Source: Gemmatimonadaceae bacterium
GTDB lineage: Bacteria; Gemmatimonadota; Gemmatimonadetes; Gemmatimonadales; Gemmatimonadaceae
Direction of reading: 5' to 3'
DNA length: 64,000 bases
Assembly (NCBI GenBank): GCA_051859245.1
Contig: JBHYGA010000001.1
Location: forward strand, 896,001-960,000
The notes under the pieces are model-generated. The model had not been told where the DNA came from. It searched no databases and saw only the letters and a list, made by a program, of their open reading frames with translations. Shown here piece after piece: positions 9,512 to 61,520 of this stretch. Position 1 is the first letter of the stretch; each line of letters starts with the position of its first letter. Made by a program: the position numbers and the translations under genes.

Positions 9512-10648
9512 ATGACTCAGACTCTTCAGGAACGCATTGCGACCGCCCTTCGGGGCGTGGCGCACCCGCGCAGCGGGACCGACGTGCTCTCCGCCGACGC
9601 CGTTCGCGATATTGGCACCACGACCGATGGCAAGGTCCGCCTGACCGTGCTCCTCGCGGCCGATGACGACGCCGAACTCGTGCGCGAAGTGCGCGACGCC
9701 GTGCAAAGCGTGAGCGGCGTGAGCGACGTACGTGTCGACGTGAAAGACCCGGCCCAGTTTGCCAAGTCACCGCCGCCGGAGCCAGCGCGTCCGGCCTCGC
9801 GATCGTTGCCGGTGATGGATGCCGCACCGGCCGCGCCGCGGAACGTGGCGCCGCCGCCGCAGGTGGCCTACCCGCAGCTCGGGCGAATCATTGCGGTGTC
9901 ATCGGGTAAGGGAGGCGTGGGCAAATCCACCATGGCCGTGAATCTTGCCATCGCGCTCGCGCAGCGCGGTGCACGGGTCGGCATTATGGACGCCGATGTG
10001 TACGGCCCCAATCTCCCACTCATGCTCGGCGTTGATCACGCGCCCGCTGTGCGTGACGAGAAAATCATTCCGCTCGAAGCACATGGCATCAAAGTGATGT
10101 CGATCGGTTTTCTCATCGAAAAAGAGCAGCCGGCGATCTGGCGCGGTCCCATCGTCATGAAAATCATCACGCAATTCCTGCGCGATGTCGCGTGGGGACA
10201 ACTCGACTATTTCCTGGTCGACATGCCACCTGGCACGGGAGACGCGCAGTTGTCGCTCGTGCAAGCGACGTCAGTGCACGGCGCAGTCATCGTCACTACG
10301 CCACAGCAAGTCGCGGTGGGTGACGCGTTGCGTGGTGTGAAAATGTTTGAGCGCACATCGGTACCGGTGCTTGGCATCATCGAAAACATGTCGTGGTTCG
10401 AAAACCCCGAAACGGGCAAGCCGATCGCGTTGTTCGGAACGGGCGGCGGGCAGCGTCTTGCCACCGAGACGGATCTTCCACTGCTCGGGCAAGTGCCGGT
10501 TGATCCGCGCATTCAGGAGGGCGGCGACACCGGACGGCCAATCATTGTGGCCGAGCCCGATTCGAAAGCGGCGCGTGCGATTCGATCGATCGCTGAAGCC
10601 GTCGTCTCGCGCATGGATGCGCGGTGGGGCGCGGTTGCAGGTGCGTAG
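9512..10648 (+). CDS. mrp: Mrp/NBP35 (ApbC) Fe-S cluster carrier ATPase
   Basis: SGKGGVGKST, DADVYGP, WRGP, DMPPGTGD and ENMS motifs, plus an N-terminal DUF59-like domain. Confidence 0.95.
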   Translation: MTQTLQERIATALRGVAHPRSGTDVLSADAVRDIGTTTDGKVRLTVLLAADDDAELVREVRDAVQSVSGVSDVRVDVKDPAQFAKSPPPEPARPASRSLPVMDAAPAAPRNVAPPPQVAYPQLGRIIAVSSGKGGVGKSTMAVNLAIALAQRGARVGIMDADVYGPNLPLMLGVDHAPAVRDEKIIPLEAHGIKVMSIGFLIEKEQPAIWRGPIVMKIITQFLRDVAWGQLDYFLVDMPPGTGDAQLSLVQATSVHGAVIVTTPQQVAVGDALRGVKMFERTSVPVLGIIENMSWFENPETGKPIALFGTGGGQRLATETDLPLLGQVPVDPRIQEGGDTGRPIIVAEPDSKAARAIRSIAEAVVSRMDARWGAVAGA

Positions 10649-10668
10649 ATGCTGGCACGCGTGATCTG

Positions 10669-11445
10669 ATGTCCGCGCGCGTCATCACGCTGCTCACGGA
10701 TTTTGGCACCGCCGACGGTTACGTTGGCGAGATGAAAGGCGTGCTCCTATCTCACGCGTCCACCGCGCAACTCGTTGACATCTCCCACGACGTGGCGCCG
10801 CAGGATATTGACGGCGCTCGACTCGCGGTGGCGCGGTACTGGAGACGGTTCCCTCTCGGTACCGTGCACCTGATCGTAGTGGATCCTGACGTCGGCACGG
10901 ATCGCGCGGCGCTCGCCGTGGAGAGTGGCGGACGGTTTCTCGTGGGGCCTGACAACGGCGTGCTGTCGCCCGCGCTATTCGCCCTCGATGCACAGGTCGT
11001 GCGGCTTGAGATACCGGCCTCGGCATCGGCCACGTTTCACGGTCGTGACGTGTTTGCGCCGGCGGCCGCACAGCTCGCGTGCGGCGCGCTCATCACTGAC
11101 CTCGGCGAACCGTGGCATCAACCTGTGCGTCGTCGCACTCCGGAGCCACGCAAGCGACCGGACGGCGCGGTGCAGGGTGAGGTCTTGTCGATCGACCGAT
11201 TCGGGAACGCAATTACCAACCTGTACGCGCGGGCCGACGGTTGGCTCGAAGTGCTCGACACCATGCTTCCGGTTGTTCGGACGTACGCGCAGGTGCCCGA
11301 GGGTACGCGCGTGGGTGTGATCGGCTCCAGCGGGCTGCTCGAAGTCGCCGTGCGAAATGGGAGTGCCGCTCAGGCGTTGCGACTCGTGCGCGGTTCGGCG
11401 GTGGTGTGGCACCCCACACGCCGCGCGGGCGCCGAACGACCGTAG
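10669..11445 (+). CDS. SAM hydrolase / SAM-dependent halogenase (DUF62) family protein
   Basis: ITLLTDFG, VVDPDVGT, GPDNG, TFHGRDVFAP and IDRFGN motifs. Confidence 0.9.
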   Translation: MSARVITLLTDFGTADGYVGEMKGVLLSHASTAQLVDISHDVAPQDIDGARLAVARYWRRFPLGTVHLIVVDPDVGTDRAALAVESGGRFLVGPDNGVLSPALFALDAQVVRLEIPASASATFHGRDVFAPAAAQLACGALITDLGEPWHQPVRRRTPEPRKRPDGAVQGEVLSIDRFGNAITNLYARADGWLEVLDTMLPVVRTYAQVPEGTRVGVIGSSGLLEVAVRNGSAAQALRLVRGSAVVWHPTRRAGAERP

Positions 11446-50571: not shown

Positions 50572-53045
50572 CAGACGCGCGCCTCCGTTGTTGCCGTACG
50601 ACGCGCTGAGCGGCGAGCGGGCGCCGCCGGCTGCTTTGTCAGCGCATCAGCAACGGCGGGCACCGATTGCGGCATCAATGCATGCTCGAGCACTTCATCC
50701 ATCGATCGCACCGCGTGCCACGTCACACCGTCGCGTGCATCCGTTGGCATCTCGGACAACTCACGCGCATTCGCAAACGGCACAATCACTGCGGACATAT
50801 GCTGCCGGTGCGCAGCCACGCCCTTTTCACGCAAGCCACCAATCGGCAACACACGACCGCGCAATGTGACTTCGCCCGTCATGGCCACATCACCGCGCAC
50901 CGCACGTCCGGTGAGTGCACTCACCATGGCGGTGGCCATCGCAATACCAGCCGACGGACCGTCCTTCGGTGTCGCGCCAGCGGGGACGTGCACGTGCAAA
51001 TCATGACGTTGCAGCGTATCTGCGGCGAGACCAAGACTCTCCAGTCGCGAACGCACCCACGTAAGCGCCGCCGACGCCGACTCTTTCATCACATCGCCGA
51101 GTGTTCCGGTGAGCTGTAAACGACCACGTCCCGGGATCACACTGACTTCAATCTCCAGTATCTCACCGCCAACCGAGGTGTAGGCCAGGCCATTCGCCAC
51201 GCCAACACGGTTTTCAGTACTCGCCATCTCCGCATCGTACGGCGCTACACCCAGATACTCGGCCAGCTGCGCTTCTGTCACGGTGATTGGCAACGCAATA
51301 TCGCCACGCTCCGCGATCGCACGCGTCAGCTTGCGCACCAGCCGCGCAACGCGACGCTCGAGATCCCGCACGCCAGCCTCGCGTGTCCAACCGCGCAGCA
51401 TCGCGGTGAGCACCGCGTCATCGATCACCACATCCGTGGCGGCGAGTCCATGCGCTTCGAGTTGACGCGGCACGAGATAGCGAGAGGCAATCGCGAGCTT
51501 CTCCGGTTCGAGATAACCAGGCAAGCGCACCACTTCCAGACGATCACGCAACGCCTCGGGAATGCCGGGCAGTGAGTTGGCGGTTGTGATGAACAACACC
51601 TGCGACAAATCGTAATCCACTTCGAGATAGTGATCGGCGAACGCGCGATGCTGCTCTGGGTCGAGCACCTCGAGCAGTGCCGAAGCCGGATCTCCGCGCC
51701 AGTCGCTGCCCAGCTTGTCGAGCTCGTCGAGCAACAAGACGGGATTCGTCACCTCTGCACGACGCATTGACTGAATCAGCCGACCGGGAAGGGCGCCCAC
51801 ATACGTGCGGCGATGTCCGCGAATTTCGGCCTCATCTCGCACACCACCAAGCGAGATGCGCACGAACTTGCGACCCATGGCGCGCGCAATGCTGCGCGCG
51901 AGCGACGTTTTACCAACACCGGGAGGACCAACGAGACAGAGAATCGGTCCACGCACAACGCCCACACGCGAGAGCACGGCAATGTGATCGAGAATGCGTT
52001 CTTTGACTTCGGCGAGGCCGTAGTGATCGGCATCCAGCACTTCACGTGCAGTGGTGATGTCGAGGACGTCATCACTCTTTTCGTGCCATGGCAGCGCGGC
52101 AATCCAGTCGAGCCAGCCGCGTGAGACCGCGGCTTCAGGCGACATGGGCGACAACTTGCGCAGGCGGCGAATTTCACGCGTGGCGCGCGTTTGAATGGCC
52201 TCAGGCAGCTTGCGCGCGGCCAGTTGCAACTCGAGTTCGGCGAGCTCGTCACCGTCATCGTTGCCGAGTTCCTTGTGAATCGCCTTGAGCTGCTCCTGCA
52301 GAAAGAACTCGCGTTGATTCTGGAACAGTGAGCCGCGCACCTGATCATCAATGCGACGTTCGAGGCGCAGCAATTCGAGTTCACTCACGAGCACTTCCGC
52401 CACGCGATCGACCAACTCCGCGAGCGACGGTTTGGCGAGCAGTTCCTGACGGACATCGAGAGGCAGCTGCAAATGCGCGGCGATGCCGAAGATCACGCGT
52501 TCGGGATCTTCCAGTGACTGGAGCACACCAACGATTTCCGGCGGCGTGCGACGCTGCAGCCCGGCGTACTCTTCGAACAGCGAGAGTGTGTGGCGTATGC
52601 GAACCGCGAGCTCGGTGAGCCCGTCGTGCGGAAGCTCAAGCGGATACGAACGCACGGTCGCGTGCACCGGCAGCGCGATGCGCGGCGCTCCTTCGTCGCT
52701 CTTGACCTCGCGCGGAAGGGTAAAGCGCGTAATGAGCACACGCTCTTTCGCATCCACGAGGATGCGCGTGGTGCCGTTGGGCATCCGCGTGACATGCTGC
52801 ACGCGCGCGACCACACCGACACGATGCAGCCCTGTTGCGGCGGGCTGTTGATCGTCGGGGTTGCGTTGCGTGACAAGCAGGAGTTCGCGATTCCCTTCAG
52901 CAGCGGCTGCCACAGCAGCGAGCGAACGGGAGCGCCCCACCAGCAGGGGCATGGCCGCATGCGGAAACAGCACAACATCACGCAGCGGCAGAACGGGATA
53001 CCGCGTTGGCGAGTCGCCAGGACGCGGGGCAGGGCGTGGGCTCAG
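50571..53045 (-). CDS. lon: ATP-dependent protease La (probable CTG start)
   Basis: [13 protein letters not shown]-terminus, GPPGVGKTS, catalytic PKDGPSAG and IGGLREK. Confidence 0.95.
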
Positions 53046-54310
53046 GCTTCCTTCTTCTGGCGCTTGGGCGCGATCTCCAATAGCGGCGGTCCGCCTCGGG
53101 TGACCGATGCCTCGGTGACTTTCACTTCCACAATGTCATCACGACTTGGCAAGTCGAACATTGTTTCGAGCAGTGTTTCTTCGAGAATGGCGCGCAAACC
53201 ACGCGCACCGGTGCCGCGACGCAGCGCCTTCTCGGCAATCGCACGCAGCGCCGATTCTTCGAACGTGATTTTCACGTCTTCCAGATCGAACAAGCGCTGG
53301 TACTGACGCACCAAGGCGTTCTTCGGCTCCTTGAGAATCTGTACCAACGCCGTTTCGTCGAGCGCGTCGAGCGGGACGCACACCGGCATACGGCCTACGA
53401 GTTCCGGAATGATACCGTAGCGCAGCAAGTCTTCCGGCTCCACTTCAGAGAACGGCGACTTGGCGGTCTCGTTCACCACACCTTCGAGCGGCTCGAGCTC
53501 CGTCTTTTCCGGTCCACCAAATCCGATCTGCCGACGACCAACGCGCGCTTCGATGATCTTTTCCAGGCCATCAAACGCGCCGCCGCAAATGAACAGGATG
53601 TCCTTGGTGTTGATCTGAATGTATTCCTGCTGCGGGTGCTTGCGACCACCCTGCGGCGGCACGGATGCAACAGTGCCTTCGAGGATTTTCAGCAGCGCCT
53701 GCTGCACACCTTCGCCCGACACATCACGCGTGATACTCGGGTTCTCCGATTTGCGCGCGATCTTGTCGATTTCGTCGATGTATACAATGCCGCGTTCGCA
53801 TTCGGCCACGTTGAAATCGCCGGCCTGCAACAAACGTACAAGAATGTTTTCGACGTCTTCGCCAACGTAGCCCGCTTCGGTGAGCGTGGTCGCGTCGGCA
53901 ATCGTGAACGGCACATCGAGAATACGCGCCAGCGTCTGCGCGAGCAGTGTTTTGCCAACACCGGTCGGACCAATAAGCAGGATATTCGACTTGTCGAGCT
54001 CGACATCATCTTCGCGCGCATTGGCGGCCGCGTTGATGCGCTTGTAGTGGTTGTACACGGCCACTGACAGCGCCTTCTTGGCCCGTTCCTGTCCGATCAC
54101 GTACTGATCCAGCGTCGCCTTGATTTCGCGAGGCGACGGGACCTGCGTGATCGCTTCCGTTACCTCACGCTCCTCATCTTCGGCCAGGATCTCATTGCAG
54201 AGCGCGATGCACTCATTGCAAATGTAGACCGACGGCCCGGAAATGAACTTCCGGACGGCGTCCTTGGACTTTCCGCAGAATGAGCAGCGCAGATGCTTGT
54301 CTTGGGACAT
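53042..54310 (-). CDS. clpX: ATP-dependent Clp protease ATPase subunit
   Basis: CSFCGK zinc finger, [18 protein letters not shown] and IGF loop. Confidence 0.99.
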
Positions 54311-54463
54311 GTCGGCGAGCAGGGGGACGGGAAACGGGGAAGACCCCGGGTAGCTATATGAACTAACCCGAAGTCGGCCGAAGGGTCAAGCTGACGGGCG
54401 GTTCTTGCTTCATTCGGACTTAGTCTCGGCGGGAGGCGAGGAAATCTGGAGGGTCAGCGGCAG

Positions 54464-54682
54464 TTCCTGATTCGGTCTTTCGGCCCAGTTGCGGGAGCCC
54501 AAGGCCATTTGGCCTTTCGGCCTCACCGTTTCGAAACGTGCACAAGGCTGAGATGCCGGGCGGTTCCGTAACGACACCTAACAGCCGGAGATGGGTGCTC
54601 CGTGCAGCCTTTCGAAAATGAGAGGCCGAAAGGCCAAATGGCCTTGGGCTCCCGCAACTGGGCCGAATGACCGAATCGGGAA
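54464..54682. repeat. Palindromic element, left copy (about 80-bp arms)
   Basis: 54464-54543 is the near-perfect reverse complement of 54602-54682, including a 46-bp perfect stretch. Confidence 0.95.
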
Positions 54683-54758
54683 ACGCAACGGCGTGGAGGT
54701 GATGCTGGGTCGAGGGAAATGGTGATGGACACGCGGGATAGGTGTGCAATCCTGACCA

Positions 54759-55142
54759 ATGCGCGACTTCAGGCGGCTCTATGTGTGGCAGCAGGCGCAT
54801 GCGCTCACGTTGGCGGTGTATGCGGCGTCCTCCGACGTTCCGAGGACTGGATACCCAGGGCTCGTCACGCAGCTCCGACGAGCTGCGGCAGCGATTCCCA
54901 CGAATATCGCAGAAGGGTGCGGACACAGCTCAAGAAAGGAGTTCGCGCGCTTCCTGCAGGTCGCGGTGGCCTCGTCGGTCGAGACGGAGTATCACCTGCA
55001 ACTGTGCCATGACCTCGGCGTCATGGAAGCCGCGGCGTCCTCAAAGCTCATCGCCGACACCAACCGGGTCCGTCGCCAGATCGCTTCCCTCCTCGCCAAA
55101 GTCCGCGACGAACTCCCAAACTCGCCCCCGCGTGCCGTCTGA
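54759..55142 (+). CDS. Four helix bundle protein (23S rRNA intervening-sequence protein family, TIGR02436/PF05635)
   Basis: MRDFRRLYVWQQAH...QLRRAAAAIPTNIAEG...EFARFLQVAVASSVETEYHL. Confidence 0.93.
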   Translation: MRDFRRLYVWQQAHALTLAVYAASSDVPRTGYPGLVTQLRRAAAAIPTNIAEGCGHSSRKEFARFLQVAVASSVETEYHLQLCHDLGVMEAAASSKLIADTNRVRRQIASLLAKVRDELPNSPPRAV

Positions 55143-55362
55143 TTCGGTCATTCGGCCCAGTAGGCGGAGCCCATGGCCATTCGGCCTTTCGGCCTCCCGT
55201 TTTCGCAAGGCCGCACAGAGCACCAACACTGGGCTGGTCTCCGCGCCGATCAAACTGTAACCACCCGGCATTCGAGCTCGGTGCGAGCTTGCGAAAACGG
55301 GAGGCCGAAAGGCCAAATGGCCGTGGGCTCCTTCCACAACGGCCGAATGGACGAATCAGGAA
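55139..55362. repeat. Palindromic element, right copy (inverted relative to the left copy)
   Basis: Arms CTGATTCGGTCATTCGGCC... and ...GGCCGAATGGACGAATCAG. Its loop is the diverged reverse complement of the left loop. Confidence 0.93.
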
Positions 55363-55396
55363 AAGCAAAACGGCGGGCGCGTGAGCGCCCGCCGTT
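55361..55396 (-). terminator. Intrinsic terminator downstream of clpP
   Basis: Minus strand AACGGCGGGCGC-TCAC-GCGCCCGCCGTT followed by TTGCTTTT. Confidence 0.8.
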
Positions 55397-55417
55397 CCAA
55401 ACTCGAACAGAGAAAAA

Positions 55418-56044
55418 CTAGTTCTTCGCCGCCGCTGCTGCTGCGACCAGCTCAGCATCCGTGGCGATCACATTATCAATCAGGCCGTACACCTTAGCCT
55501 CTTCCGCCGACAGGAACCGATCGCGGTCCGTATCCCGCTCGATCTGCTCCACCGGCCGGCCCGTGTGCTTGGCCATCAACTCATTCATCTTCGCGCGGAG
55601 ATACAGGATCTCGCGCGCCTGAATCTCAATATCCGATGCCGAGCCACCGCCGCCGTTCTGTGACGGCTGGTGAATCATCACGCGGGCGTGCGGCAGTGCC
55701 GCGCGCTTGCCGGGCTCGCCGGCGCAGAGGAGAAACGCTCCCATGCTGGCGGCCATTCCCATGCACGTGGTGTGCACGGGCGACTTGATGAACTGCATCG
55801 TGTCGTAGATCGCCATGCCGGCCGAAACGCTGCCGCCGGGCGAGTTGATGTACAGGTTGATGGGCTTGTCCGGGTTGTCGGCGTACAGGAACAGCAACTG
55901 CGCGATGATCACATTGGCCACATCGTCATTCACCGGCGTGCCGAGAAAGACAATGCGGTCCATGAGCAACCGCGAGAAGATGTCGTACGACCGCTCACCG
56001 CGGGACGAGCGTTCAATGATGTACGGCGTGTAAATCGTGGGCAT
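55418..56044 (-). CDS. clpP: Clp protease proteolytic subunit
   Basis: [25 protein letters not shown] and ERDTDRD. Confidence 0.98.
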
Positions 56045-57357: not shown

Positions 57358-58884
57358 TCAGGGCGCCCGTGCGGCCACAGGCTCCGGACGCACCACCCGA
57401 CGCCCGCTGCGCCCGGGGGCGGCCCCGATCGTGTCGGCCACGATCTTGCCCGAGCTGATCACGCCCGGCAGCCCTGCGCCCGGATGCGTCCCCGCGCCGG
57501 CAAAATACAAGTTCGGGATGTCCCGATCCTTGTTGTGTGGACGCCAGTAGGCCGACTGGAACAGCGTTGGCTGTACTGAGAAGGCGCTGCCGAGGTAACT
57601 GTTGAGCGTGTCACGGAAATAGCGTGGATCCACGCGACTCTCCGATACCACATGCTGCCGCAGGTCCGGGAGATAACGTTCTTCCAGATACTCCATGATG
57701 CGATCGCGGTATCGCTGCCCGACTTTTTCCCAGTCCACATCGCCGCCAAGATGCGGCACAGGCGAGAGCACATACCAGCAATCGTGCCCTGGCGGCGCCA
57801 GCGAGGGATCGGTGGCACTCGGTCGGTGCAGGTACAACGAAAAATCATCGGCGAGCAGTTTGCGTTCGAAAATGTCTTCAAGCAGTTGCTTGTACCGCGG
57901 CCCCATGATGATCTCGTGGTGTGCCACGTTCTCGTACTTGCGAGTGGTGCCAAAGTAGATCACGAACAGCGACATGGAGTAGTCATAACTCTCCAGCTTC
58001 TTGTTCGTCATGCGGGGACGCGCCCACGCTGGCACCAGCTGGCGATACGTCTGGGCAACGTCACCGTTTGATACCACCGCGTCGGCAGTCAGTACTTCGC
58101 CACCAGCCAGCGTAATGCCGGTGGTGCGCTTGGTATTGCGATCCACGTTGATGGCCGTGACTTCACTCTCGTAGCGAATCGTGCCGCCGATATCGGCGAA
58201 GAGTCGCACCAGCGCCTTCACGAGTGCGCCGGTTCCGCCCATGGCAAACCACACGCCCCACTCGCGCTCCAGTGTATGAATGAGCGCGTAAATGGACGAC
58301 GACGAAAACGGATTGCCACCAACCAGCAGCGGATGAAAACTGAACACCTGACGCAGGCGATCGTCCTTGACGAACTGCGAGGTGTACGCCGCCACGCTGC
58401 GGTCGGCGCGAAGTCGTACGAGATCTGGCAGCACCTTGAGCATCGACGTGTATGTGGGGAATGGCTTGTCGATCAGTGCCATACCCGTCTTGAAAATGTC
58501 CGCCGTACGCGTCACGAACTTTTCATAGCCGGCCACGTCGTCCGCGTTGAACCGCGCGACTTCGCTGCGAAGATGTTCAGGGTTGCCGTTGTAATGAAAC
58601 ACGCTGCCGTCTTCGAACCGGATGTTGTAAAACGGATCAAGCAACTTGAGCTCGATGTAATCTTCCGTTTTCACACCGCACAGTTCAAAGAGATCGTGCA
58701 AGAGCCACGGCGCCGTGATAATCGTGGGCCCCGCATCGAACGTGAATCCATCGCGTTCGAACACGTACGCACGTCCACCTGGCTTGTCGAGTTTCTCGAC
58801 AATCGTGACGTCATGCCCCTGAGCCTGCAATCGAATCGCGGCCGCTAAACCACCAAAGCCACTGCCAATGACGAGGATGCGCAT
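57358..58884 (-). CDS. crtI: Phytoene desaturase
   Basis: GSGFGG, FDAGPT, LLVGGNP and GAGTHPGAGLPGV. Confidence 0.95.
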   Translation of the reverse strand: MRILVIGSGFGGLAAAIRLQAQGHDVTIVEKLDKPGGRAYVFERDGFTFDAGPTIITAPWLLHDLFELCGVKTEDYIELKLLDPFYNIRFEDGSVFHYNGNPEHLRSEVARFNADDVAGYEKFVTRTADIFKTGMALIDKPFPTYTSMLKVLPDLVRLRADRSVAAYTSQFVKDDRLRQVFSFHPLLVGGNPFSSSSIYALIHTLEREWGVWFAMGGTGALVKALVRLFADIGGTIRYESEVTAINVDRNTKRTTGITLAGGEVLTADAVVSNGDVAQTYRQLVPAWARPRMTNKKLESYDYSMSLFVIYFGTTRKYENVAHHEIIMGPRYKQLLEDIFERKLLADDFSLYLHRPSATDPSLAPPGHDCWYVLSPVPHLGGDVDWEKVGQRYRDRIMEYLEERYLPDLRQHVVSESRVDPRYFRDTLNSYLGSAFSVQPTLFQSAYWRPHNKDRDIPNLYFAGAGTHPGAGLPGVISSGKIVADTIGAAPGRSGRRVVRPEPVAARAP

Positions 58885-58912
58885 GTCTCGCTAATGCTGA
58901 GGACACCACAGG

Positions 58913-59182
58913 CTACCGACGTGAGATCAGCGTCAGATGCCAGATGTGGAAAACGAGCGCCGACGTCAGCGCGATGATGAACACCAGTGACGGGTTGGCC
59001 AGTGCCCGGATCGCGTACAGCGCGACAACGAACGCCAGGCCGGCGCCAAGAAATGAGCAGACCGCCAGCGGTCTGGGGCCACGTCCCGTGCGTGCATGAT
59101 ACGCCACCAGGACGGCTGCTTCGCAGATGATTGCCACCATCACCAGCTGCAGGAACAGCGGCGACTCGACGAACGCAATCAT
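58913..59182 (-). CDS. Small membrane protein in the carotenoid cluster
   Basis: About 3 hydrophobic helices. Co-oriented between cruF and crtI. Confidence 0.65.
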   Translation of the reverse strand: MIAFVESPLFLQLVMVAIICEAAVLVAYHARTGRGPRPLAVCSFLGAGLAFVVALYAIRALANPSLVFIIALTSALVFHIWHLTLISRR

Positions 59183-59251
59183 GCTGCGCATGCGATGCTC
59201 ACGGGCACATCGGGAAACACGATGGCGAGCGAACCAACGCTCGCCCGATCG

Positions 59252-60226
59252 TCAGTCGCCGGCCATGGCAACGTCGCGCACACCGACACCGCTGCGTGAC
59301 GCGCGCGCATCGTTCGCCACGGGGGAGCCCGCACGCCACGCGAGTCCGAGCGGTACAGCCATCGCAATAAAGCCGAGAATGCCCGCCCATGGCATATCCT
59401 GCCGCAAGCAGATCGCGATCGGCAGCAATCCATTCACGCCGTACAACACGAGCGGAAACTTGCTCGGCGCGACATTCCGCGCCCAGACGCTGGGCGGAAC
59501 AATCGCCAACATCAAACGCGCCACGATGATGCCGGTGAGCAACCAGCCCATCCAGTTCGTGAGCGGCATGCCATAGAACATTTCGCGACCAATGAACTGC
59601 GAGAAGGCCGACGCATTGCTCAGATCAGGGATGTCCCAGATCCAGTGCTGCGTTTTGACCATTGCCGGATCCATCGACACATCCCACGCCGTGAGTACGA
59701 GGCCTGCCATGAGCGCCCAGTACCAGCGGGACGTGCTATCGTCCTTCGCCTGCAACAGTCGTCCGCAGATCGCGAGCGACGCGTACAGCATGAAGAACCA
59801 GCTCGTGGGGATGTTGAACGGCACGAGATCAAGGATCTTGTACCCGAGCAGCGACGTGTATCCGTACACGCCAAACGGCAGACCCGTGGACGTGCCGAGC
59901 AACTCCGAACCGAGCGAAACGACGAAGCTCACGCCAAAAATCGTGAGCGCGCGACGCGATCCAAGTTTGCCCATCGCGTGCAAAATGCCCGCGAGCGCAC
60001 CGGCGACAACGGTGGTCTGTCCGCCCCACGCGTAGCCGATCGAATACACTTTCATATTCGTGGGCGTGTTCAGCCACGCCGGCAACGGCGGCGACAGGAA
60101 CGTGGCGAACGCGAACGCGGAGAACGCGCTCATCACGGCATGGATGCCCAGAAAAATGAGCGCCACGCGCAACAGGCCCGCAGACTGATCCTGCTCAGCA
60201 GATGTAGTAGAAGACAACGCAGTCAT
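59252..60226 (-). CDS. cruF: CruF-like carotenoid 1,2-hydratase (DUF422 family)
   Basis: SELLGTSTGLPFGVYGY, VPFNIPTSW, WDVSMDP and GMPLTNWMGW. Confidence 0.82.
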   Translation of the reverse strand: MTALSSTTSAEQDQSAGLLRVALIFLGIHAVMSAFSAFAFATFLSPPLPAWLNTPTNMKVYSIGYAWGGQTTVVAGALAGILHAMGKLGSRRALTIFGVSFVVSLGSELLGTSTGLPFGVYGYTSLLGYKILDLVPFNIPTSWFFMLYASLAICGRLLQAKDDSTSRWYWALMAGLVLTAWDVSMDPAMVKTQHWIWDIPDLSNASAFSQFIGREMFYGMPLTNWMGWLLTGIIVARLMLAIVPPSVWARNVAPSKFPLVLYGVNGLLPIAICLRQDMPWAGILGFIAMAVPLGLAWRAGSPVANDARASRSGVGVRDVAMAGD

Positions 60227-60250
60227 AAGAAAGCAGAGAGGTCGGTGCGC

Positions 60251-61318
<1,068 letters not shown>

Positions 61319-61520
61319 GCGTTGTACCACACCGGCGTGAGGAGACATGCCATACGTAGAAAGTCCGGGATCGTGTATCGCCAAGGGGAGGCATCTGGTG
61401 AAAGACGTCGCCCGAACTGCGGAGCGGCTCTTAACTGCAAGTGAACGCATTGCCCGGGAACCCGTTCCCGAACGCAGAGCACAAATCAGCCAGCACTACA
61501 GTGCCGCGTCGAGACGCCAC

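Follow-up and report, generated by a model that had tools for sequence, protein, structure and literature searches.

What binds a small gene to the two long palindromes that enclose it is the question raised by a locus between clpP and clpX in this Gemmatimonadaceae genome (G000). The window, that is, the whole stretch of DNA analysed, is 64,000 nucleotides long. The gene encodes a four-helix-bundle protein of the family PF05635/TIGR02436, which is common across bacteria and has solved structures, and to which, to our knowledge, no function has been assigned. We compared the locus with the sister genome (G002) and with the genomes of other relatives (further G numbers). The features in window coordinates are as follows.

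53042-54310, minus strand: clpX, host gene (NCBIfam TIGR00382/PRK05342 above cut-off).
54355-54392, minus strand: conserved block upstream of clpX, likely clpX's own promoter (kept in filled and empty genus loci).
54464-54682, no strand: left long palindrome, member of a dispersed family (absent at the clpP-clpX site in G006).
54699-54704, plus strand: upstream half-site, which repeats the core of the promoter box in direct orientation about 22 nt ahead of it (seen in the sequence).
54716-54727, plus strand: putative promoter box, 43 nt before the ATG, common to comEC, comM, comEA, yraN and intI (sequence comparison).
54748-54753, plus strand: -10-like hexamer xAnnnT, 5 nt before the ATG (position kept in homologs and before comEC/comM).
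54759-55142, plus strand: four-helix-bundle gene, 127 aa, PF05635/TIGR02436, single-copy, under purifying selection (profile searches and predicted fold).
55137-55362, no strand: right long palindrome; the stop codon of the gene lies within it, and it would form the 3' hairpin of the gene (absent at the clpP-clpX site in G007).
55366-55399, minus strand: intrinsic-terminator-like hairpin after clpP (terminator scan and genus loci).
55418-56044, minus strand: clpP, host gene (Pfam PF00574).

As the first-pass annotation of this DNA had described, each flank is itself a hairpin: the arms of the left palindrome are 73 nt long and 93% complementary, and those of the right one measure 68 nt plus 19 nt and are 85-89% complementary. 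The 8-mer units claimed for the arms are present, the outer ends form a perfect inverted repeat of exactly 11 bp, the TGA (55140-55142) falls within the first bases of the right palindrome, and the gene is antisense to clpP and clpX. The 11-nt outer end recurs at 12 of the 34 ends of the 17 full copies found in G000, so it is a family end and nothing special to the flanking pair. The further claim that the flanks are inverted copies of each other, loops included, held in part. Both loop motifs occur in the left palindrome (plus strand) and in the right one (minus strand), and one of the two is also present in a third family copy; the inverted relation of the loops is weak in G000 (z 3.1 inverted versus 2.4 direct) and strong in G002 (z 9.7). 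Among the 16 other full copies, the right palindrome is only the seventh-best match to the left one. Each arm (54464-54536 and others) carries about five GGCC-like units, and the solved relatives of the protein are pentamers; as it stands, this is numerology.

The ORF matched PF05635 (E 1.4e-28, 99.6 bits, cut-off 33.8) and TIGR02436 (E 1.3e-28, 99.4 bits, cut-off 24), and it is the one PF05635 gene in the whole G000 genome. The AlphaFold model of the protein (pLDDT 94) has four long helices in a 2GSC-like fold, and Foldseek aligned it to XCC0516 (2GSC) with a TM score of 0.86 and to Avd (4DWL) with 0.75, in agreement with the earlier placement of the gene in a family with Avd-related structure. 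The protein is net basic (16 R+K versus 11 D+E, hand count), and no known catalytic motif was found in it. Its codon differences to G002 (43 synonymous, 8 non-synonymous) indicate purifying selection.

BLASTN of both flanks against G000 returned 35 loci at about 28 sites, comprising 17 full-length copies, 4 partial interior copies and 14 contig-end halves. An HMM search for more degenerate copies found none that were new, and the three Rfam matches were all far below gathering scores. In an alignment of 28 copies from two genomes, the arms consist of frozen 8-mer blocks and variable positions, and the covariation check proposed for the hairpins came out positive, with compensatory changes in 24 of 62 arm pairs. 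No GTAG or CGTC tag was found at the repeat ends in this alignment; GTAG occurs only in the variable inner stretch. Arm identity was 0.88 within a copy versus 0.83 between copies, the difference in means being significant; when a copy's own arm was compared with the best other arm, the test for homogenisation was negative in 17 of 17 copies. Orthologous arms were slightly more alike than non-orthologous ones (0.88 versus 0.85). No transposase was found among the 46 neighbouring ORFs scanned (46 of the 53 listed, at 31 of the 35 loci).

Several observations concern the repeats as such. The 14 G000 contig ends lie inside a palindrome, and loci in G002 join C2-C11, C6-C7, C10-C4, C11-C8 and C10-C1. 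A collapsed 51-nt mini-hairpin (G000:C4:995961-996011) and a back-to-back pair of half-arms (G000:C5:97886-98108) are possible products of deletion or rearrangement of the repeat.

The site itself is filled in some genomes and empty in others. Empty clpP-clpX sites, which the first-pass annotation had suggested looking for, measure about 0.2 kb in G003, G005, G012 and G013, and 5 of 5 other genera likewise have an empty site. The gene is accompanied by the right palindrome alone in G006 and by the left one alone in G007; G004 has a single arm and a different gene at this position. No target-site duplication could be read, the empty sites being too diverged. The insert lies directly behind the T run of the terminator-like hairpin of clpP and before the conserved block upstream of clpX. 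The terminator scan is weak by itself (1 found versus 1.2 expected in shuffles), and a hairpin with a T run stands 3' of clpP in all 13 genus loci shown; the sigma-70 scan gave no call on the block at 54355-54392. In G008, G009, G001 and G014 (L052, L054, L055 and L056), the gene 3' of clpP reads as what we take, from its N-terminal motif, to be a glutamate synthase large subunit; the position behind clpP has thus received different cargo.

All 12 G002 copies that were fetched (12 sites of 28 strand-level matches) lie at G000 sites, which speaks against recent jumping, while 5 of the 6 mappable sites of G008/G012 (20 regions fetched) have no copy in G000. The repeats thus spread on the scale of species groups, with no spread visible now. 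On this comparison the spread is slow, sites being fixed between sister species and differing between more distant ones. The trees resolve sister pairs only (the ComEC tree being a quick version), with sister hosts carrying sister proteins, and we therefore claim no donor or order of events.

These loci also bear on the proposal that the locus is an invertible DNA segment in which the gene flips between two inverted copies. As 220-bp inverted repeats the flanks are about 76% identical, which makes RecA-type inversion conceivable, but the gene lies next to clpX and points the same way in 6 of 6 genomes (G000, G002, G006, G007, G008 and G014), no recombinase gene was found near it, and its promoter would flip along with it, so that expression would not switch. 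We consider inversion highly improbable and the proposal unsupported. Four contig sets confirm the pieces of the locus, but they break inside the arms and have joints from other copies, and so they are uninformative on inversion or excision.

The copies lie preferentially at gene 3' ends. A gene 3' end lies within 120 nt in 28 of the 35 loci (genes from an ORF filter), and repeat sides facing 3' versus 5' gene ends number 39:17, against a background of 674:858. This preference would fit equally well a role in RNA, in which the repeats are 3'-UTR hairpins and the protein, made at the time of competence, attaches to them in mRNA, including that of its own gene, and alters stability or termination. 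We regard such a regulator as unlikely, though by no means far-fetched. The stop codon of the gene inside a hairpin and the repeat sites fixed between G000 and G002 would agree with it, as would the structural relative Avd, which is described as working on RNA (PMC6182149). However, mismatches read along the sense strand of the upstream gene are not skewed towards G-U (35 G.T versus 31 A.C in 10 single-sided copies), the genes neighbouring the copies are functionally unrelated and the sites differ across the genus; moreover, the left palindrome, unlike most family copies, is placed between two gene starts.

The tie between gene and palindromes extends to relatives. A PF05635 homolog is present in 53 of 61 genomes of the order (a tally that counts G021 as a no-match row). 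When the best locus of each of 30 genomes was taken, an inverted repeat between the flanks was found in 25 of 29 scorable homolog loci versus 0 of 26 shifted windows; the genomes compared are kin, so the homolog counts are not independent. Inverted flanks occurred at 7 of 861 small G000 genes, the top match of this control being a second, unrelated GC-rich palindromic repeat with tandem units (G000:C9:76270-77080). In a wider homolog set the count was 16 of 34 versus 0 of 29 controls. The repeat sequence itself changes: that of G000 is confined to G000 and G002 (28 matches each), G006 (10) and single weak matches in three more of the 61 genomes (G021 again a no-match row), and the flank repeats of G008, G012 and G013 differ from it in sequence, each being dispersed within its own lineage alone. 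Matches within the own genome numbered 75 in G008, 63 in G014, 50 in G012, 35 in G007 and 20 in G013, and none of these flanks matches G000. A lineage-specific flank repeat that is also dispersed is found in four repeat lineages of this genus. Beside second paralogs the repeats are different again, and they differ also between two paralogs of the same genome.

Accordingly, the idea of a transposase-less module tied to this gene family is supported by the inverted flanks of homologs and by the empty sites. The competing view, a generic scattered repeat, was correct as to the scattering and failed as to independence from the gene family. The Y1 transposase family PF01797 was found in 0 of 15 genus genomes (64-99.9% complete; the control was positive in 6 of 14), and a RAYT/IS200 mobiliser was rejected on this count. 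Reverse transcriptase (PF00078) occurs in 4 of the 15 and was not found in G000, and retro-mobility was rejected.

An accessory competence gene around which orphan MITEs of an unknown or lost transposase collected by chance would also be enclosed by repeats. Two-sided enclosure indeed extends to other genes (in G000 one of 223 aa, in G008 a Uma2 gene), single arms or copies lie just upstream of comM in G000 and of comEC in G008 and G014, the PF05635 family is without known mobilising activity, and the genome-wide enzyme search covered PF01797 and PF00078 only. Nevertheless, this passenger scenario appears improbable, because flanks that are unrelated and lineage-specific in 25 of 29 homologs, and that differ between two paralogs of one genome, are not what chance or a single hotspot would give. 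The Uma2-family nuclease gene of G008 (L051, G008:C118, about 10130-11160) lies between two near-identical direct palindrome copies and has the same promoter box as the four-helix-bundle gene; the one in G000 (C1:442449-443132) has the box and no palindrome copies. The repeats upstream of com promoters are at G000:C5:571571-571792 (before comM), G008:C102:28445-28521 and G014:C5:15475-15552 (both before comEC), all placed as the left flank is for the four-helix-bundle gene.

The first-pass annotation had further proposed that the transcript folds into one giant stem enclosing the ORF, comparable to an intervening sequence (IVS) of 23S rRNA: a read-through clpP-clpX transcript would pair the two flanks, and RNase III would cut out the insert. 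The energies allow for it, since the cross duplex (-313 kcal/mol) and the two local hairpins (-319 kcal/mol; both duplex energies) are nearly isoenergetic in G000 and the cross duplex is the stabler in G002, G008 and G014; the G002 flanks are inverted including their loops, and Coxiella 23S rRNA is described as a precedent (PMC4990558). Nevertheless, the flanked region, which folds at z -14.75 (versus 20 shuffles), forms two separate hairpins in an unconstrained fold. Any two family copies can cross-pair, the G008 and G014 flanks match better as direct than as inverted copies (81 versus 78% and 79 versus 74%), and two congeners retain the gene with a single flank. The Coxiella ORF lies on the rRNA sense strand, whereas the gene here is antisense, with a conserved block before clpX. 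Moreover, its likely promoter is located between the left palindrome and the ATG, so its own mRNA would contain the right hairpin only; with a terminator-like hairpin also standing between clpP and the insert, the giant stem is distinctly improbable.

This putative promoter would connect the gene to DNA uptake. Common to the homologs are a box 43-44 nt upstream of the start codon and an xAnnnT hexamer 5-6 nt upstream of it. With no ribosome-binding site and the -10-like hexamer 5 nt from the ATG, the mRNA is likely leaderless. In G000, a matrix built from the homologs picked this gene, comEC, comM, recQ, a pilin-like gene upstream of pilM, and yraN, which stands ahead of recA and recX; two top matches inside coding sequence (a DUF494 gene and a CMD-family gene) were treated as chance. 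In genus relatives, the best match lay at 43-44 nt with the hexamer for 10 of 12 comEC and 9 of 11 comM genes versus 0 of 22 clpP/clpX controls. Across all families and at a score cut of 13, only 6 of 26 comEC and 4 of 28 comM loci passed. The half-site at 54699-54704 is weakly conserved before comEC/comM of relatives.

In the reverse direction, a two-box model for which the 23 comEC/comM upstream regions of genus relatives were the sole training set ranked the four-helix-bundle gene 6th of 3,639 G000 genes, tied with comM. The 99.5th percentile of this model is 6.7; 13 of 14 genus homologs scored 7.6 or more, and 6 of 17 from other genera also lay above the percentile. Seven of eight second paralogs scored at least 10.9 in the promoter model, and on visual inspection the box stands in register upstream of yraN in 5 of 5 genomes and of comEA in 6 of 6. 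A strict box pattern had 19 matches in 15 genomes and none in the reversed control. Ten of these open no long ORF, and the remaining nine precede three four-helix-bundle genes, two comM, one comEC, one pilin-like gene, one restriction methylase and one integron integrase. Since the pattern was devised from four-helix-bundle genes, comM and comEC, only the pilin-like, methylase and integrase matches are independent. A further 18 Gemmatimonadota homologs have a Shine-Dalgarno leader, for which reason none of the 18 was recovered by fixed-distance scoring; in a free-distance scan 9 of them scored at least 10, as did 0 of 68 control windows. Of 18 homologs from other phyla, 1 passed the promoter scan.

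The box was not found before dprA, comF or lexA, and LexA was rejected as the regulator because its own gene lacks it. A three-box model gives the G000 yraN a score of only 1.3, and with the start-codon constraint lifted the scan returned 137 matches, many of them inside genes. Approximate box positions in G000 are C5:818096, C5:571839, C1:1476192, C1:814564, C1:728983, C1:568085, C1:527524 and C1:1677176; the genes there are comEC, comM, yraN-recA-recX, the pilin-like gene, comEA, an Eco57I-type methylase, a truncated integron integrase and recQ. The integrase (C1:526452-526751) matches over its C-terminal 100 residues only and is intact in G002 (L191, G002:C31).

From these comparisons the box is likely a competence/recombination regulon motif of Gemmatimonadaceae, and it presumably acts as a competence promoter. 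The label "competence" comes from the member genes, of which ComM and YraN are described as acting in natural transformation (PMC13663708); the regulon could instead be a DNA-damage response. Two adjacent WYL-domain matches on one strand, in a PafBC-like arrangement (G000:C5:521084-522358; L199, L201), are a candidate ssDNA-sensing activator, with no tie to the box. Neither the box motif nor its regulator was found in the literature searched, and the main texts of open-access papers contained none linking PF05635/TIGR02436 to competence or to dispersed palindromes outside rRNA. The promoter link to DNA-uptake genes is new here.

In G006 the box is displaced (score -8.3), and the second paralog of this genome keeps an intact one. 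In G006 and its sister genome G004 (83-84% complete), most repeat sites are single arms, with partner-arm scores of 5-22 versus 39-60 in G000. That the displaced box and the single arms occur together is suggestive.

The upstream signal shared with DNA-uptake genes suggests that the protein is made during DNA uptake. Such timing suggests single-stranded DNA as the relevant form; it is in this form that the hairpins fold. RAYTs and integron integrases likewise act on single-stranded DNA. The reading we favour is that the four-helix-bundle protein is a competence-timed partner of its own repeat family, binding its hairpins in ssDNA and relying on host recombination. The two palindromes are copies of a lineage-specific hairpin-repeat family and the gene is the family's single resident gene, probably switched on together with the DNA-uptake genes. 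The protein, presumably a nucleic-acid-binding pentamer recognising the 8-mer-phased arms, is predicted to bind family hairpins folded in single-stranded DNA and would thereby aid the copying or retention of repeats at new sites; host recombination proteins (RecA, ComM and YraN) may supply the catalysis that it seems to lack.

The ssDNA-partner reading draws on the dispersal of the repeats, the gene-repeat pairing, the filled and empty sites, the upkeep of the hairpins and the shared promoter box. It is opposed by the sites fixed relative to G002, the enclosure of other genes and the 16 of 34 flanked loci in the wider set, and on the promoter side by the genes without a box (dprA, comF and lexA), the low yraN score, the intragenic matches and the single homolog outside the phylum. 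Weighing these, we hold it tentatively, as the likeliest of the readings though slightly less probable than not. Its extension to the whole family is possible, if on balance doubtful: PF05635 proteins would be dedicated partners of a transposase-free class of repeats, recognising their own ssDNA hairpins under a competence promoter, while natural transformation and RecA/ComM/YraN seed and homogenise the repeats, REPIN-like and without a nuclease of their own. The locus is predicted to give PF05635/TIGR02436 a defined cognate DNA substrate, one that varies with lineage and paralog, and a defined condition, namely expression alongside the DNA-uptake genes. With both defined, the function of the family becomes directly testable, and the analysis also maps a likely competence promoter in Gemmatimonadota.

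Competence regulons, and mobile enzymes timed to ssDNA such as the integron integrase, form one comparison class. The gene shares the com-gene promoter signal at the same spacing, and this signal is common to comEA, comEC, comM, yraN-recA-recX, the pilin-like gene before pilM, recQ and intI; in contrast to such regulons, dprA, comF and lexA lack it. The palindromes differ from integron attC sites in having no R-box ends (by inspection against the consensus). An attC/integron reading was discarded, as the ends do not fit and the truncated G000 integrase lies more than 400 kb away.

Judged by sequence features, the system is REPIN-RAYT in layout with a different resident protein. Like REPIN-RAYT systems (Bertels and Rainey 2011, PMC3116915) and TIRtrons (Di Nocera 2013, PMC3733652) as these papers describe them, it comprises extragenic doublets that form hairpins, their arms conserved and their centre variable, found genome-wide and mostly downstream of genes, and a single-copy gene flanked by its own repeats, with different paralogs having different repeats and inheritance being mostly vertical (here, sister hosts with sister proteins). 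It differs in its resident gene, a four-helix bundle and not an HUH/Y1 transposase, and in its arms of about 90 nt built of 8-mer-phased units, its about 28 copies instead of hundreds and its competence-type promoter. Having the layout but no transposase, it falls outside REPIN-RAYT. For many palindromic repeats of bacteria a mobiliser is not known; for the CGTC repeats this is stated in the cited text (PMC3733652).

The S23p IVS of Coxiella 23S rRNA is described as having the same protein family, an ORF between complementary ends and short direct repeats near the ORF (PMC4990558). An rRNA insertion with the ORF on the transcribed strand is not what we find here: the locus is between clpP and clpX, each flank is a hairpin with solo copies elsewhere, and the gene is antisense to its host genes with its own likely promoter. 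The Coxiella ORF is reportedly decaying and probably unexpressed (PMC4990558), whereas the ORF here appears to be under purifying selection. With Avd of diversity-generating retroelements (PMC6182149, PMC10053308) the protein shares its fold, XCC0516 being the closer structure; reverse transcriptase, expected there with TR/VR nearby, is lacking in G000 and in 11 of the 15 genus genomes by PF00078 search. Elsewhere in the window, positions 57358-61450 hold carotenoid synthesis genes, with phytoene desaturase-like and phytoene synthase-like ORFs recognised from their translations.
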